Position numbers and translations under genes: made by a program. A DNA stretch of 64,000 nt from Mobula hypostoma (taxonomy: Eukaryota), in NCBI RefSeq assembly GCF_963921235.1, contig NC_086097.1:6076001-6140000 (forward strand). The letters are read 5' to 3'. The notes beneath the pieces are model-generated. The model saw only the letters and a list, made by a program, of their open reading frames with translations. It was not told where the DNA came from and did no database searches. Positions 15,586 through 30,028 of the stretch are shown one piece after another. Positions within the stretch are counted from its first letter, which is position 1, and each line of letters begins with the position of its first letter.

Positions 15586-16345
15586 CATAAGAACATAAGA
15601 ATTAGGAGCAGGAGTAGGCCTTCTGGCCCATCAAGCCTGCTCCACCATTCAATAAGATCAAGGCTGATCTGGCCATGGACTCATCTCCACCTAGCTGCCT
15701 TTTCCCCATAACCTTTAATTCCTCTACTATGCAAAATCTATCCAGCCTTGTCTTAATTACATTTACTGTTGTAGCCTCCACTGCTTCATTGGGCAAAGAA
15801 TTCCACAGACTCTCCACTCTCTGGGAAAAGCAATTCCCCCTCTTCTCCGTCCTAAATCTACTCTCACGAATCTTGAGGCTATGTCCGTTAGTTGTAGTCT
15901 CATCTTCCATTGGAAATAACTTTCCAGCCTCTATCTTACCTATCCCTTTCACAACTTTATTTGTTTTGATAAGATATCCCCTTATCTTTCTGAATTTCAG
16001 TGAGTACAGTCCCAGGCGACTCAATCTCTCCTCGTAGGTTAACCCCTTCATCTCTGGAATCAACCTGGTGAACCTCCTCTGCACTACATCCAAAGCCAGT
16101 ATATCAGTCCTCAAGTAACGAGACCGGAACTGCTTGCAGTACTCCATGTGCGGCCTCACCAGTATCCTGTATATTTGCAGCATAACCTCCCTACTCTTAA
16201 ATTCAATCCCTCTAGCAATGAAGGCCAACATTCCATCTGCCATCTTGATAACCTGCTGCACCTGCAAACCAACATTTTGTGATTCATGCACAAGAACGCC
16301 CAAGTTCCCCTGCACAACAGCATGCTGCAATTTTTTACTATTTAA
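15586..16345 (-). repeat. Relatively young CR1 3' end
   Basis: 242-aa open frame (LVRPHMEYC..QRRFTRLIP..YEERLSRLGL); (tcttatgt) tail. Confidence 0.9.
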
Positions 16346-16587
16346 GTATTAATCTGATGACCTCGCATTCACCAACATTGTACTCCATCTGCCAGGCCCT
16401 TGCCCATACACTTAACCTATCTACATCTCTCTGCAGACTCTCCGTATCATCCGCACAATTTGCTTTTCCATTCAATTTAGTATCATCAGCAAACTTAGAT
16501 AAACTATGCTTGGTCTCCTCTTCCAGATCATTAATATATATCGTGAACAGGTACGGGTCCAGCACTGACCCCCTACGGCACACCATT

Positions 16588-16820
16588 TGAAGCGCACCTT
16601 CAATAACTACAAAAGACTGAAGTTGGGTAAAATACTGAAAGGCTTTTATTCGCTGTGCAACAATCTGACCTCCATGGTGAGTGTCTGCCCCTGGACTGAG
16701 GGGGAGGGGCAAGGCGAAACACCTTTATACAGGATTGTGTGGGAGGAGCCACAGGGGCAGTCAGCAGAGGGGCGTGTCCAGACAGTTAACACAGTTACAA
16801 CATATATATGGTTTACCATA
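16588..16820 (-). mobile_element. Solo LTR, 233 bp, probably Ty3/Gypsy
   Basis: 5-bp duplication CCATT at 16583-16587 and 16821-16825. Minus strand runs TA(TG-derived)...CA, with TATAAA followed by AATAAA. Confidence 0.8.
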
Positions 16821-17175
16821 CCATTCACCACTGATTACCAACCAGAGAAACACCCATGTATCCTAATGCTCTGCTTTCTATTAGTTAACCAATCCTCTAT
16901 CCATATTAATACACCACACCCAACTCTATGTATCCTTATCTAATGGATAAGTCTTTTATATGACACCTTCTCAAATACCTTCTGGAAATCCATGTAAGTA
17001 ATGTCCATCTGTTCTTCTCTATCCACTGCACTCATTATATCCTCAAAAGAACTCTAAGTTTGTGAAACAGGACTTGCCTTTGCTGAATCAATGCTGCATC
17101 TGCCTGATGGATCCATTTCTTTCCAGATGCCTCTCTAGTTCTTCTTTAATGATAGCTTCAAGCATTTTCCCAACT

Positions 17176-20100
17176 GTCCGTCTGTCTAGGTATCATATCC
17201 GATGCGGACTTTGGTGACCATGGTTTTCCATATAGATCTATCCTTCATTTTTTGGATGACTTCTATTTCCTCAATGTGTAGCAACCTGGCTATACTTTTG
17301 ATGTACATAAGCCGAGGTCTTCCTCTAGGTTTGCTCCCCTCAATCTTTCCACAGAGGATAAGTTTTTCTAGTTCATCTTTCCACATGATGTGTCCTAGGA
17401 ATCTGAGTTGACTTTCTCTTGTTGTTGGTATGAGAGATGGAACTGCTTGGGCTCTTCTGAGAACTTCTTCATTTGATGTGTGTGTGTGGTCCATGATAAT
17501 TTTAACATTCTCCTGTAGAACCATAATTCAGCTGCTTCTAGTCTCTTTTCCATTGCTGGAGAAATGGTCCAGCATTCACTTCCATAAGTCAGGATAGAAT
17601 AAATGTAGCACTGCTGTATTCTGTTTTTAGTGTACGTGCTCATCTTTCTTTCTGTTAAAATGGTCTTCATTTTTTGGAAAGCTTCTTTCGCCGTTGCTAT
17701 TCTGTATTTGATATCTATGTCGCACCTGCCATTACTTGTTATTAGGCTGCCAAGATATTTAAATTTGTTGACTTGTTTGATGTTTGTAGTTCCGATCTTG
17801 ATCACACGTTGTGGGATGTTTGTCTTTCTGGAGATGACCATGCTTTTTGTCTTCTTGGTGTTGATTGAGAGGCCTCTGTGATTACTTTCTGCTGCCACTA
17901 TAGTGAGTAGTCCTTGAAGTTTTATTTCTGAGTCAGCTATTAGTACGATGTCATCAGCATATCTGATGTTAGTTACATTATGGCCTCCAATTGTGAATCC
18001 TTTGATGTCTTTGATACTTCTCAAGATATTTTCACTATACAGGTTGAATAAGCCTAGTGAAAAGACACAACCTTGCCTGACTCCTCTCATGATATTCACA
18101 TACTCATTCACTTCTCCTTCTGTTCTGATCGATGCTGTCTGGTCCCAGTATAAATTTCTTAAGAAACGTATATCTTTCCCACCTATGTCAAGATCTTGAA
18201 GCATTTCCAGAAGATCTTGCTGTCTGACAGTGTCAAAAGCTTTTGTATAGTCAATGAAACATAGGTAGATGTCTTTTTGTACCTGGATAGCTCATTCACT
18301 GATCATCCGTAGCACGAAAATTGCATTTCTGGTTCCAGTGTTTTCCACAAAGCCGAATTGTTCCTTACTGATTTCTGGTTTTATACAGCGTCTTGCTCTC
18401 ATCATGATTACTCTGAGAATAATTTTTGCTACGTGGCTCATCAGGCTTATTGTACGATGTAACTCACATTCTGTTGCTCCCTCTTTCTTTGGAAGTGTGA
18501 TGAACACTGATTTACTTAAATCATCAGGTATCTCCCCATGATCATAGATTTCATTTGCTATTTCTGTTATTTTCTCTATTCCAAAATCTTCTAAGGCCAG
18601 TATCATTTCAACAGCGATGTTGTCTGGACCAGTTGCTCTGTTATGTTTTGTTTTATTTATGGCTGCTTGAATTTCTGATTTTAGAATGCTAGGTCCTTCA
18701 AGATTCTTCTTTATGTTCGGTTTTTCTCCTCTTTGGTCTTCAAAAAGTTCTTTTATATATTCTGTCCATCTGTTTAGGATTTCCTCTTTGTTCATAATTA
18801 AGCTGCCATGTTTTGCCTTGATGCAAGGTAATTTCCCCATTAGTTCTTTAATCTTATTGTGCATCAACTTTGTTCCAGGGTTATGGGTTTGTAGCATTTC
18901 TGTCTCTGAGCATTTCTCATTTAGCCATCTGTCTTTAACTTCTGTGCATTTTCTTTTTATTGTCTTATCAGGTTGTTTGTATTCTTTGCTGTCTCTTAGT
19001 TTGATGGTCTGCTTTTGTTGCATCAATTGTATTATATCTTCAGTTATCCATTTCTTTTTACTTTTCCGTTCTTTTCGTGGGATGGTTTCTTTTGCAGCTA
19101 CAACCATGGATTCCTTCAGTATGTCCCAGGAAAATTTGCGTCCTTCATCCTGCAGCAATTGAAAATGGTTTTTCACCTTGATTGCGTATTCTGCTTTCAG
19201 ATGAGCGTTGTTTTGTAGTTGTTGATAATCTAGTGGTTCTGATCTTTTTGGTTTCTTTAATTTTCTCATCTTTATTTTCATTTTGCAAATGACTGGTGTG
19301 TGATCGCTTCCACAGTCTGCTCCAGGGTAGCTTTTAGATTGAGTTATCGAGTTTTTGAATCTGTTATTGATTGTTATGTAGTTGATATGGTTTTTGTTGT
19401 TCCCATCTGGGCTTCTCCATGTCCATTTCCTTCTTGGATGTCATTTAAACCAAGTGTTGGTGATTATCTGATAGTTTGTTTTACACCATGATGTAGGCTT
19501 TTCTCCTCTTTCATTTCTTTCTCCCAGTCCCTGGTCTCCAACAATATGGTCTTCTCATCCCTCACCAACTTTTGCATTGAAGTCACCCATGACTATGATG
19601 GCTTCTTGTGATTTGCATTCTTCTAGTGCTTATCTAGGGAGTGGTAGAGGCATCAATTTCTTCCTCTGAGCTTTCCATTGTGGGTGCGTATACTTGGATG
19701 ATAGAGATGTTTTGTTGTCCTTTTAGTTTGATTAGCATCATTCTGTCTGAGATACGCCAGTATCCTAGCAGACTCTTGGATGTTTTTTTGTCTAAGATGA
19801 TTGCAACACCCTTTTCATGTTTCTCTCCACCAGAGTATCTCATCCTGTAGTCGTCTGATTGGAATACTCCAGTGACTTTCCATCTTATTTCACTTAGGCC
19901 TAGGATGCTGACTTCTAGCCTCTTCATTTCTAATTTTACGTTTTCTAGCTTACCAGCTTGGTGCAGGGTTCGAATGTTCCAAATGGCAATTCGCAGTCTC
20001 TTGTTCTTGCAGACAGTAGTGGTATGATTAACCATGGTTGTACTAGGGATAAAATACAAGAAGTAGCTTCCCCTTGCTTGCTTCCGATGCAGTGTCTTTA

Positions 20101-20370
20101 CAAGACGGGTGACCCTGAACATTGTCCTATTAAAAGGATCTACTGCTCAGCGTCTGAGAAGCAGGAACCATTGACTGTGTTACTCACAACTTGCCTTCTG
20201 CTTCATCCACCACCTGCATTCCGTGGCTTCACTGTAACCCAAGTAGGGAGGCTAACAGGTGCTACATCTTGCCTAATGTGACCTGGAGGTAGCTGTGGTT
20301 AATGGTATCCTCATTATCCAAAACAAATGCTCCACAGCCCGATGTAGTTTATCTTCATATCCAGGAGAGA
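17176..20370 (-). mobile_element. Near full-length RTE-clade LINE with a disrupted APE-RT ORF (~20035 to 17186)
   Basis: IAIWNIRTL..LGLSEIRW..IIQVYAPT (APE); RTISLMSH..EQFGF, GVRQGC, IRYADDIVL (RT); RGRPR C-terminus; GACAGACGGAC tail directly after the stop; no ORF1. Confidence 0.92.
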
Positions 20371-21155
20371 TTTTTTTTAAGTTTGTTTAAGTTTATTTCA
20401 ATAAACTAACAGAAAATTGTGTAGATTGAATACTGAAGCCAAATGGAAGTAACTCTTCAACAAACACAACCCAGCTCCCTTTCATTCCTTTATATTTAAA
20501 GTAACCAATATCTGCTTCATAATAAACAGAAGGAAAGTCACACAAATAAACATTTCCCAAAGTAAAAAGGATGAAATTCTTGTGTTTTATTCTTGATGTG
20601 TAATTCAACCTGGCTTTGTAGGTTTTATCCAGTTGCTATCCTTGTCTCAGACTCAAAGTTTAAGAACGTCAATACTTTCTACTTCTATATCTCTAAAAAC
20701 TATAACAGAGTCAATCTTCCATTCAGAGATACCTGGAAAGTGTTGTTCCACACCATAAACACTAGCTTAAATAGTGAACCTCTGGAAGCAATCTTTTCAT
20801 ACTTCTCACCCTGAAATCCCCCGCCATCAGGTCAGCGAGAATTAAAGATAATTTTTTTCAAGTTCCTCTTTAGAACAGGGATTGAAATGGAATAAAATGT
20901 CAGCATTAGGATGGTCGCCCCTCTGAAAATTAACATCGAATCTCAGCGGGTCATCAGTCAACTTTCCTTTAACAACAACTATTGATTCTTCACTTAATTC
21001 TTCATCAAATTTTGCGTACAGGAATAATCGGGCGGTAGAGCTTGAGGATGTTCATTGTGCGGGAGGTCGAGGCGGCTCAGACACGACGGGAACGGACGGA
21101 CGAACACGACCGGTTAACGGACGCTGCCCTGCCCACACAACCGTTCGCCTTGGAT
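20371..21155 (-). pseudogene. Processed single-CRD galectin-like pseudogene (CDS remnant 21055 to 20653); absent from the ORF track
   Basis: Manual translation across frameshifts: MNILKLYRPIIP/LYAKFDEELSEESIVVVKGKLTDDPLRFDVNFQRGDHPNADILFHFNPCSKEELE/KIIFNSR*PDGGGFQGEKYEKIASRGSLFKLVFMVWNNTFQVSLNG/KIDSVIVFRDIEVESIDVLKL*. CpG-rich ~100-nt leader; AATAAA at 20397-20392 then A8 at 20378-20371; no introns. Confidence 0.85.
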
Positions 21156-21976
21156 TTTTCCCAACTACAGATGTTAAACTAACTGGCCTATAGTTACCCA
21201 CCTTTTGCCTACTTCCTTTTTTGAACAGTGGAGTGACATTCGCCGTCTTCCAATCTGCCAGGACCTGCCCAAATTCCAGACAATTTTGGTAAATTATCAC
21301 CAAAGCCTCAACTATAACTTCTTCCATTGCTTTCAGTACCCTGGGATGCATTCCATCAAGACCAAGGGACTTACCTATGTTTAGGCCCACAAGTTTGCTC
21401 AGCACTACCTCTTTAGTGATAGCTATTGTATCGAGGTCCTCACCTCCCATCGGATCCCTATCCTTTCTATTTGGCATGTTAGACATATCCTAAACGTAAA
21501 GACCAACACAAAATTGTCATTACCCAATATCAATTCCCCCTCTCGTCCTCCAAGGAAGCTATGTTCACTTTAGCCTCCCTTTTCCACTTTATATAATTAT
21601 AAAAACTTTTACTATTCATTTTATATTTTGTGCTTGTTTTATAATCTAGCGTCCCTTTCTTTATTGCTCGCTTAGTGGTTCTTTGTTATTTTTTAGTGTT
21701 TTCCCAATCTTCCAGTTTCCCACTACTCTTGATGACTTTGTATGCATGAGCTTTTAGTCTGATGTCTTCTTTTAATTCCTTAATTATCCAAGGCTGGTCA
21801 ATGTGCAAGTTAAAGTTCCCCATGATAATTGCTGTTCCATTCTCACATGCCTCAGCTATTTCTCCGTCTACTGCCTGTCCCACTGTAATGTTGTTATTCG
21901 GTGGCTGATAAACAACTCCCATCAGTGATTTTTTTTCCCTTTACTATTGCTAATCTCTGCCCAGATGGATTCAACA

Positions 21977-28939: not shown

Positions 28940-30028
28940 AAGCATTTACCAACATTGTACTCCATCTGCCAGACCCTTGTCCACTCAATTAACCTGACAG
29001 ATCTCTCTTCAGACACTCCATATCTTCTGCACAATTTACTTCTCCACTCTATTTAGTATCATCAGCAAACTTAGATACACTACACTCGGTCCTCTCTTCC
29101 AGATCATTAATATGTATCGCGAACATTTGCAGGTCTAGCATCGACCCCTGCGACACCCCACTCACCACTATCTGCCAACCAGAGAAACACCCATGTATCC
29201 CAACTCTCTGCTTTCTATTAGTTAACTAATCTTCTATCCATGCTAATACATCACCCCAACTCAATGCATCCTTACCTTATGGATAAGTTTTTTATGTGGC
29301 ACCTTATTGATCGCCTTCTGGAAATACAAATAAATAACATTCATCTGTTCCCCTCTATCCACTGCACTCATTATCTCCTCAAAGAACGCTAGTAAGTTTG
29401 GCAATCCATGCTGCGTCTGCCTGATGGATCCATTTCTTTCCAGATGCCTCGCTATTTCTTCTTTAATAATAGCTTCAAGCACTTTCCCAACTACAGATGT
29501 TAAACTAACTGCCAAATAGTTACCTGCCTTTTGCCGACATCCTTTTTTTTGAACAGTGGTGTGACATTCACTGTCTTCTAATCCACCAGGACCTGCCCAG
29601 AGTCTGCAGAATTTTGTTAAGTCATCCATCAAAGCCTCTACTATAACTTCTACCGTTTTTTTCAGTACCCTGGGAAGCATTCCATCAGGACCAGGGGACT
29701 TGTCTATCTTCAAGCCCATGAGTTTGCTCAGCACTACCTCTTTGGTGATAGCTATTGTATTGAGCTCCTCACCTCCCATCGCACCCATAACATCTCTCTT
29801 TGGCATGTTAGACGTGTCCTCCACCATGAGGACCAACACAAAGTAGTCATTCAAAGCCTTGGCCATTTCCTCATTACCCAATATCAATTCCTCCTTCTCG
29901 TCCTTCAAGGGACCCACGTTCACTTCAGCCACCTTTTCCTGCTTTATATAATTATAAAAACTTTTGCTATCCATTTTTATATTTTGTGCTATTTTATTTT
30001 CATAATCTAGTTTCCTTTTCTTTATTAC
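28940..30028 (-). repeat. CR1 RT fragment
   Basis: KSPGPDGMLPRVLK..VSLTSVVGKVLE..FQKAINKVPH; shows the empty site equivalent to 17175/21156. Confidence 0.85.

Follow-up and report, generated by a model that had tools for sequence, protein, structure and literature searches.

A galectin mRNA copy joined end to end to an RTE-like LINE inside one target-site duplication in Mobula hypostoma

Background

Retrocopies of cellular mRNAs are usually credited to L1-type long interspersed elements (LINEs), which recognise poly(A), and genomes whose LINEs are of the stringent kinds (CR1, L2, RTE) are expected to make few of them. Bibillo and Eickbush reportedly observed end-to-end template jumping by the R2 enzyme in vitro, from the 5' end of one RNA to the 3' end of another and without homology. 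The present analysis concerns a stretch of 64,000 nt from Mobula hypostoma (assembly GCF_963921235.1, contig NC_086097.1, positions 6,076,001 to 6,140,000 of the forward strand), which as a whole is called the window below. On its minus strand, a processed copy of a galectin mRNA ends in a short poly(A) remnant directly before the first base of a full-length RTE-like LINE, and a single 11-bp target-site duplication encloses both. The whole 3,980-bp insert was probably produced in a single target-primed RTE event that included an end-to-end template jump. The jumping described for R2 is an in vitro property of R2-clade enzymes, whereas the jump considered here is read from one genomic product of an RTE-like element.

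Chimeras of cellular RNAs and LINEs have been described in several organisms. In the lizard Anolis carolinensis, U6 small nuclear RNA (snRNA) is fused to LINEs of the RTE clade (RTEX-2) and to L2 LINEs; template switching was concluded to be general and to be the sole means by which stringent LINEs can form pseudogenes of this type (Doucet et al. 2015, PMC4476161). The window insert resembles these U6 chimeras in that a cellular RNA was copied in front of a stringent LINE without poly(A). It is unlike them in that a whole spliced and polyadenylated mRNA, not U6 snRNA, was the acceptor and was entered via its poly(A), and in that the LINE is full length to nt 1.

Bipartite chimeric retrogenes are known from human, mouse and Magnaporthe, where MINE combines WEIRD with the LINE MGL. 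Their listed features are a 5' part copied from a complete cellular RNA, a 3' part (mostly a LINE) truncated at its 5' end at random points, direct fusion in the same sense and flanking direct repeats (Gogvadze et al. 2007, PMC2104539). A full-length RNA as the 5' part, a direct same-sense join, one short repeat pair and presumed LINE machinery are also found in the window. In those bipartite retrogenes, the 3' part is 5'-truncated (the switch lying inside the LINE RNA) and the LINEs are of the L1 and MGL clades, whereas here the LINE is RTE-like, starts at nt 1 of its family without truncation and is joined at its exact 5' end. With its end-to-end join, the window insert departs from them as a variant and stays within the same class of mechanism.

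Human mRNA/LINE-1 5' chimeras likewise have host mRNA at the 5' end of near full-length LINEs and one duplication; they contain 5' exons only, are often joined at splice sites (trans-splicing being suspected) and have no poly(A) between the parts, whereas the window has the whole mRNA and its tail (bioRxiv 10.1101/2025.02.02.635956). RTE LINEs of Nicotiana switch their 5' ends, and fusion with host mRNA is named as a possible source (bioRxiv 10.1101/2022.11.04.512097). The gain of unrelated 5' sequence is common to these elements and the window; the origin of the Nicotiana 5' untranslated regions (UTRs) is unknown and the variants were amplified, whereas here the donor mRNA is identified and the chimera is single-copy.

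Template-switch chimeras are accordingly already on record for L1, for a fungal LINE and, as U6 fusions, for RTE-clade and L2 elements in a lizard (PMC4476161, PMC2104539), and the novelty implied in the original prediction made from the window sequence was not supported. The locus extends the known cases (U6 with RTE/L2; cellular RNAs with L1/MGL) to a complete mRNA and an exact end-to-end join. In a limited full-text literature search, no description was found of a complete polyadenylated mRNA connected by way of its tail with nt 1 of an RTE-clade LINE.

Results and discussion

Structure of the insert

A CR1-like LINE on the minus strand was interrupted by the 3,980-bp insert (21155-17176), with the perfect 11-bp duplication AGTTGGGAAAA (plus-strand form TTTTCCCAACT) on both sides. 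Around the break, the CR1-like frame reads ...RPVSLTSVVGK up to 21156 and, after the insert, continues as MLEAIIKEE..., the CR1 sequence picking up again at 17164 with MLEAIIKEELERHLE.... A single copy of the site is present in the window's other CR1 element (TCTGTAGTTGGGAAAGTGCTTGAAGC near 29483-29500, one mismatch), and in each of all four sequencing runs more than 100 contigs read on from 21156 into uninterrupted CR1 (TGCTTGAAGCTATCATTAAAGAAGAAATAG).

The insert is composed of a 777-bp mRNA-like part, A8 and a 3,195-bp LINE. Its order on the minus strand is a CpG-rich leader, a galectin frame, a 3' UTR, AATAAA, 13 nt, A8, the RTE and an (ACAG)n-type tail. No poly(A) was present at the RTE end of the insert, and no second copy of the insert was found within the window. 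Neither the retrocopy nor the RTE alone has a duplication of its own; one 11-bp pair flanks both together. This anatomy had been described in the original prediction, from the split CR1 and the duplication to the leader, the AATAAA, the A8 and the tail, and every coordinate of it was borne out (Table 1).

Table 1. Features of the chimeric insert and its host element in the window
Feature	Position	Strand	Remarks
Host CR1-like LINE, 5' part	21167..21797	-	Window 21797-21156 79% identical to the CR1 copy on contig C66
Upstream 11-bp duplication copy, AGTTGGGAAAA	21156..21166	-	Within host CR1-like reverse transcriptase (RT) frame (...VSLTSVVGK); 11/11 identical to 17165-17175
Processed galectin retropseudogene	20379..21155	-	Leader 21155-21056, ATG 21055-21053, TGA 20655-20653, AATAAA 20397-20392
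A8, mRNA poly(A) remnant and junction to RTE	20371..20378	-	7/8 A untemplated in parent; spanned by contigs of organisms A and B
Full-length RTE-like LINE, 3,195 bp, degenerate APE-RT open reading frame (ORF)	17176..20370	-	Stop TAG 17188-17186, tail ACAGACGGAC(AG)
Downstream 11-bp duplication copy	17165..17175	-	Initial AG may equally well belong to the RTE tail (microhomology of 2 nt)
Host CR1-like LINE, 3' part	15594..17164	-	Colinear with other CR1 copies, both in the window and on C66; RT-type frames

Galectin retrocopy and its parent gene

When the galectin segment was used as query against the 3.48-Gb genome of the same species, matches were found in seven places: the window, five colinear pieces on contig C18 and one intronless copy on contig C71. 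The C18 pieces are the five exons of the parent gene, spread over ~65 kb and 87-95% identical to the corresponding segments of the retrocopy. As anticipated in the original prediction, the parent has introns and its mRNA ends just past the same AATAAA. The retrocopy segments join exactly at the GT/AG-bounded exon ends, all four parent exon junctions being spliced. Parent exon 3 (69 aa) matched the Pfam domain Gal-bind_lectin (PF00337) with 46.7 bits (cut-off 22.1, E 2.7e-12). In the retrocopy, the galectin frame is broken by two 1-nt deletions, one 1-nt insertion and, in exon 4, a deletion of 40 nt; the last (window 20718-20719) is bounded by TGG microhomology.

As an intronless copy of a multi-exon gene with poly(A), the retrocopy has the classical trait of a processed pseudogene, with a tail of just 8 A. 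It is also a copy of a cellular RNA that is full length at the 5' side, with five exons joined and poly(A) at the parent cleavage site, and with a 13-nt leader unplaced in the parent locus. The window and C71 retrocopies start at the same first base (ATCCA...), which argues for full-length cDNA. The first 13 nt of both (ATCCARGGCRAAC; window 21143-21155; L005 1380-1500) are not contiguous with the parent exon 1, which is preceded by AG. A genome pattern search for this leader, assuming one exon boundary, gave 6 matches, none of them on C18. The break in contiguity with exon 1 suggests a short leader exon that is not annotated, or else an alternative start site.

The possibility that the galectin segment is a module captured by the RTE family was rejected, since the query matched only the window, C71 and the parent exons and since none of 29 other RTE 5' ends had galectin sequence upstream; the joint insert proposed in the original prediction survived this attempt at refutation.

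The same distribution bears on 5' transduction, in which a source RTE located downstream of an older galectin retrocopy elsewhere would have been transcribed together with it and retrotransposed as a unit. This would also yield one duplication around both parts, and 5' transduction is known for L1 (bioRxiv 10.1101/2025.02.02.635956). In the assembly there is no source locus; galectin sequence occurs only at the three places named above, and a pattern of an A7 run followed by the RTE terminus (at most 3 mismatches) had the window as its sole match. Furthermore, the chimera and the independent C71 retrocopy share their first base, so that a promoterless retrocopy would have to initiate transcription exactly there, and the explanation merely shifts the origin of the junction between A8 and RTE nt 1 to another locus. 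We consider 5' transduction very unlikely, and a template jump at the window locus itself is preferred.

The RTE-like LINE and its 5' terminus

A query spanning the junction between retrocopy and LINE, with the junction between query positions 100 and 101, gave 612 candidates, and the 40 that were scored start at query positions 83-108, mostly at 100-104. The lone start at 83 (L015) was a spurious A-rich extension upstream of the element. At the 5' terminus of the family (TCTCTCCTGG), 10 of 29 other copies start from nt 1 and 19 from nt 2-8, with none extending further upstream, and the flanks beyond nt 1 are unrelated among the 29 loci. Nucleotide 1 of the window RTE, at 20370, is the family's maximal 5' extent, in agreement with the family start that had been predicted.

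Downstream, the stop-codon position leads straight into (ACAG)2-5 and then into unrelated flanks, without poly(A), in the window and in each of the 29 other copies. This position reads TAG in the window and in 27 of the 29, and TGG in L046 and L059. Better-preserved copies of the family matched the domains Exo_endo_phos (6.6e-8), Exo_endo_phos_2 (6.5e-9) and RVT_1 (7.4e-31). A single APE-RT ORF in an element of ~3.2-3.3 kb is a trait that defines the RTE clade. The family has a single ORF with an N-terminal APE-type endonuclease followed by RT, a very short 3' UTR and a short tandem repeat at the end in place of poly(A). On these traits of ORF, size and tail, the LINE is classified as RTE-like.

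The poly(A) remnant and the junction

At its cleavage site, the parent gene in the genome reads ...AACAAACTTA followed directly by CTGCATGC, and the A-run of the retrocopy begins where the match with the parent ends, 13 nt past AATAAA. Because the parent has CTGCATGC where the retrocopy has its A-run, the A residues are a real, untemplated tail. The A8 directly abuts TCTCTCC, the start of the RTE, and the retrocopy and the RTE are on the same strand and in the same orientation. No duplication belonging to the retrocopy itself was found directly around it, since GGGAAAA/A upstream and A8/TCTCTCC downstream share at most AAAA.

The junction was also covered by contigs from other samples. Over the span 20247-20458, contigs of organism A, which may derive from the assembly's own sample, showed 0 differences, and those of organism B showed 6 differences in 212 nt (97% identity). 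In organism B, the spliced copy appears to share the 40-nt deletion, contigs of 146 nt covering 20635-20780 without a gap. As its contigs bridge the same junction, the chimera predates the split of organisms A and B, and the single-event reading came through this attempt at refutation.

An exact end-to-end join of this kind would also be expected if the two RNAs were joined beforehand, that is, if the deadenylated 3' end of the galectin mRNA had been ligated to, or recombined with, the 5' end of the RTE RNA and the product copied in one pass. Such a pre-joined RNA predicts the same anatomy, with one duplication and one orientation for both parts. The ligase implicated in U6/L1 chimeras is not known to act on a poly(A) 3'-OH and an RTE 5' end that bears a cap or a triphosphate, which counts against this route, and no splice-site motif was found at the A8/TCTCTCC junction. 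For U6/L1, RNA ligation that precedes reverse transcription is on record, and for mRNA/L1 trans-splicing has been raised (bioRxiv 10.1101/2025.02.02.635956). A pre-joined RNA and a template jump cannot be separated by sequence. We regard the pre-joined RNA as an improbable source of the insert, the template jump being favoured.

A second RTE insertion at the same CR1 site

Only one other locus (L044, on contig C66) had an RTE 3' end running into the same CR1 flank. The RTE on C66, within a 30-kb stretch of that contig (28124000-28153999; L068-L070), interrupts its CR1 at the identical position. Its duplication reads AATTGGGAAAA on the upstream side and AGTTGGGAAAA on the downstream side, or A(A/G)TTGGGAAAA for the two together. 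This copy has a 5' inversion, in which the inverted part 18850-19943 lies beside the direct part from 18856 to the tail with a 7-nt overlap, and it was later split by another CR1. No galectin sequence was found at the C66 RTE.

If C66 were a paralogous locus carrying the RTE only, it would point to sequential insertion in the window. This was rejected for the following reasons. The two RTE copies differ by 7.6%, and their terminal branches sum to 7.4% (3.3% + 4.1%); 1 non-majority state is common to both copies, while 24 and 33 are private. The CR1 on C66 is 79-85% identical to the host CR1 and 79-83% identical to the window's other CR1 copy, and so is no closer to the former. In addition, the 5' structure of an element is fixed at insertion, and the different 5' structures at C66 and in the window speak against paralogy. 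By these comparisons, the C66 insertion is an event independent of that in the window.

A genome-wide pattern of RTE tail plus CR1 flank gave 26 matches, and clear RTE junctions were present only in the window and at C66; the other 24 were 23 intact CR1 copies and one ambiguous case (C55). Since an independent RTE lies at the same site with the same duplication, the 11-bp duplication in the window bears the signature of the RTE machinery. An 11-bp duplication was also observed around another RTE copy (L014/L052). These observations suggest that TCTGT/AGTTGGGAAAA/TGCTTG is a sequence-preferred target for both nicks of the RTE.

One insertion event or two

The ages of the two parts were compared by private substitutions. 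Of 565 sites that could be compared across the window retrocopy, the parent and C71, 19 (3.4%) have a substitution private to the window retrocopy, versus 23 private to the parent and 20 to C71. For the window RTE, the terminal branch measures 2.8% (18 copies, 5' 1.7 kb) or 3.0% (11 copies, 3' part). Judged by these counts, the retrocopy and the RTE appear equally old. There are 91 RTE 5' termini in the 3.48-Gb genome, and an unrelated insertion with zero offset and the right orientation would have a probability of about 1e-8 per insertion, which makes a chance encounter look improbable.

An order of events in which the retrocopy was inserted first is excluded, because the bottom-strand primer ...CCCAACT is not T-rich and because re-use of the preferred site by the RTE would leave a third 11-mer between A8 and RTE, where none is present.

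In the opposite order, the RTE would have been inserted first, with its 11-bp duplication, and a poly(A)-dependent LINE machinery would later have added the retrocopy immediately before RTE nt 1, next to the upstream copy of the duplication, by priming on the AAAA of the latter. The boundary GGGAAAA/TCTC does provide a short bottom-strand T-run for poly(A) priming, L1-ORF1-type frames are plentiful and often open in the genome, and the ages are equal only within a wide error (19/565 versus ~3%). Nevertheless, this order needs a zero-offset strike on one of just 91 RTE 5' termini in 3.48 Gb, leaving the upstream duplication copy (11/11) and RTE nt 1 both intact with nothing deleted. The retrocopy's own duplication would be 4 nt at most (AAAA), the next base being A where T is needed, and its tail would be just 4-8 A. 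TTTT/CC is not known as the preferred L1-type site, which also counts against a later insertion, and the classical structure of poly(A) with a duplication of its own is found in neither retrocopy of the galectin gene. Sequential insertion is unlikely in our view, and a single RTE event with a template jump accounts better for the locus.

The following points weigh against a single event with a jump. A run of A7 within 10 nt upstream of the RTE 5' terminus was found in 1 of 91 copies, that in the window, and the genome therefore holds no independent replicate of a jump from RTE to poly(A). The A8 is far below the typical length of an mRNA tail, which would require that the acceptor had lost almost all of its tail, that the enzyme landed within the tail or that the run shrank afterwards; there are no extra untemplated bases at the A8/RTE junction. 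A search of the 1.5 kb preceding parent exon 1 gave no match to the 13-nt leader of the retrocopy. Neither an empty nor an intermediate state of the orthologous site was encountered: organism B carries the complete chimera, and organism F yielded contigs of the parent-exon kind only and no cover of the retrocopy 3' UTR, such missing cover being no evidence of absence. Equal age is compatible with one event or with two in the same period. Finally, L1-ORF1-type (Transposase_22) frames gave 3,353 candidates; 150 of the 150 scored were above the cut-off, and many are open at 306 aa. With frames so abundant and so often open, a poly(A)-dependent machinery could have added the retrocopy later. The many frames with the same open length of 306 aa suggest a young ORF1-bearing LINE family.

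Proposed mechanism

In the sequence of steps that we consider most probable, the RTE endonuclease would nick the bottom strand of the CR1 copy at ...CCCAACT, and the nicked 3' end would prime on the (ACAG)n tail of the RTE RNA through a 2-nt AG/CT microhomology. The RT would copy the RTE RNA through to its first base and, by an end-to-end template jump, would carry on onto the short poly(A) of a galectin mRNA, which would then be copied to its 5' end. A second nick 11 bp away would leave one duplication around the chimera. The original prediction had proposed a single RTE event with a jump to the poly(A) of a host mRNA. Its single-event part came through the attempts at refutation; that both parts were copied in one event, and by a jump rather than from a pre-joined RNA, we infer from the structure of the product.

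Recurrence and the C71 retrocopy

The C71 retrocopy (L002 1501-2130, minus strand) has 20 private changes in 565 sites and is of similar age. It stops at mRNA position 589, without the last ~190 nt and without poly(A), and abuts a 5'-truncated repeat of at least ~290 nt, here called X, with a (GATTT)n tail. The genome matches of repeat X all start at the C71 junction, yet 4 of 6 fetched X copies reach at least 50 nt further 5'; since X extends further elsewhere, it is 5'-truncated at C71. No duplication was evident, and the remainder of the retrocopy was absent within 1.5 kb. This copy was not upheld as a second clean chimera, X being 5'-truncated, a duplication lacking and the structure ambiguous. 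It may be another RT-switch chimera, and it is not joined to an RTE.

The general route to retrogenes that the original prediction envisaged was not supported, as the window is the only one of the 91 RTE 5' termini with an A-run upstream and the other galectin retrocopy has no RTE; the locus does not demonstrate a frequent pathway. What it offers is a case where an RTE-like element of the stringent kind seems to have passed beyond its own 5' end and thereby carried a complete polyadenylated mRNA into the genome, with the donor gene, the cleavage site, the element terminus and the target site all resolved to the base. It also gives concrete form to the proposal that new 5' ends of RTE elements originate from host mRNAs. 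That the locus captures stringent RTE LINEs in the act of acquiring host 5' sequence, a poly(A) jump having set a CpG-rich host leader before a full-length element, is a speculative suggestion that we doubt. If recurrent, such jumps would give rise to retrogenes even where the main LINEs of a genome disregard poly(A), and would feed the unexplained switching of RTE 5' UTRs.

Other features of the RTE family

A protein atlas lookup returned generic reverse-transcriptase clusters only. The named relatives of the APE part were mostly 'craniofacial development protein 2-like', which we take to be the usual automatic name for RTE/BovB-type endonucleases. The closest named relatives of the endonuclease part of one copy (L018 565-1620) were from shrimps, sea slugs and rotifers, with ~55-60% identity, and not from vertebrates, which would fit the known horizontal spread of RTE-type elements.

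The window RTE lacks ~103 bp near 20027 that are kept in all 29 compared copies. This gap (window ~20021-20027) is located just past the first ATG, and its breakpoints share ~6 nt.

Four of the 29 other 5'-terminus loci (L017, L033, L034, L036) have inverted RTE sequence upstream of nt 1. These were tried as candidate template jumps and rejected, since mapping showed them to be 5' inversions of the twin-priming type, which, with the C66 copy included, are frequent in this family. In L017, the inverted part q1361-2649 lies beside the direct part q1-1368; where the two orientations meet, an overlap of 7-8 nt was seen both in this copy and in C66.

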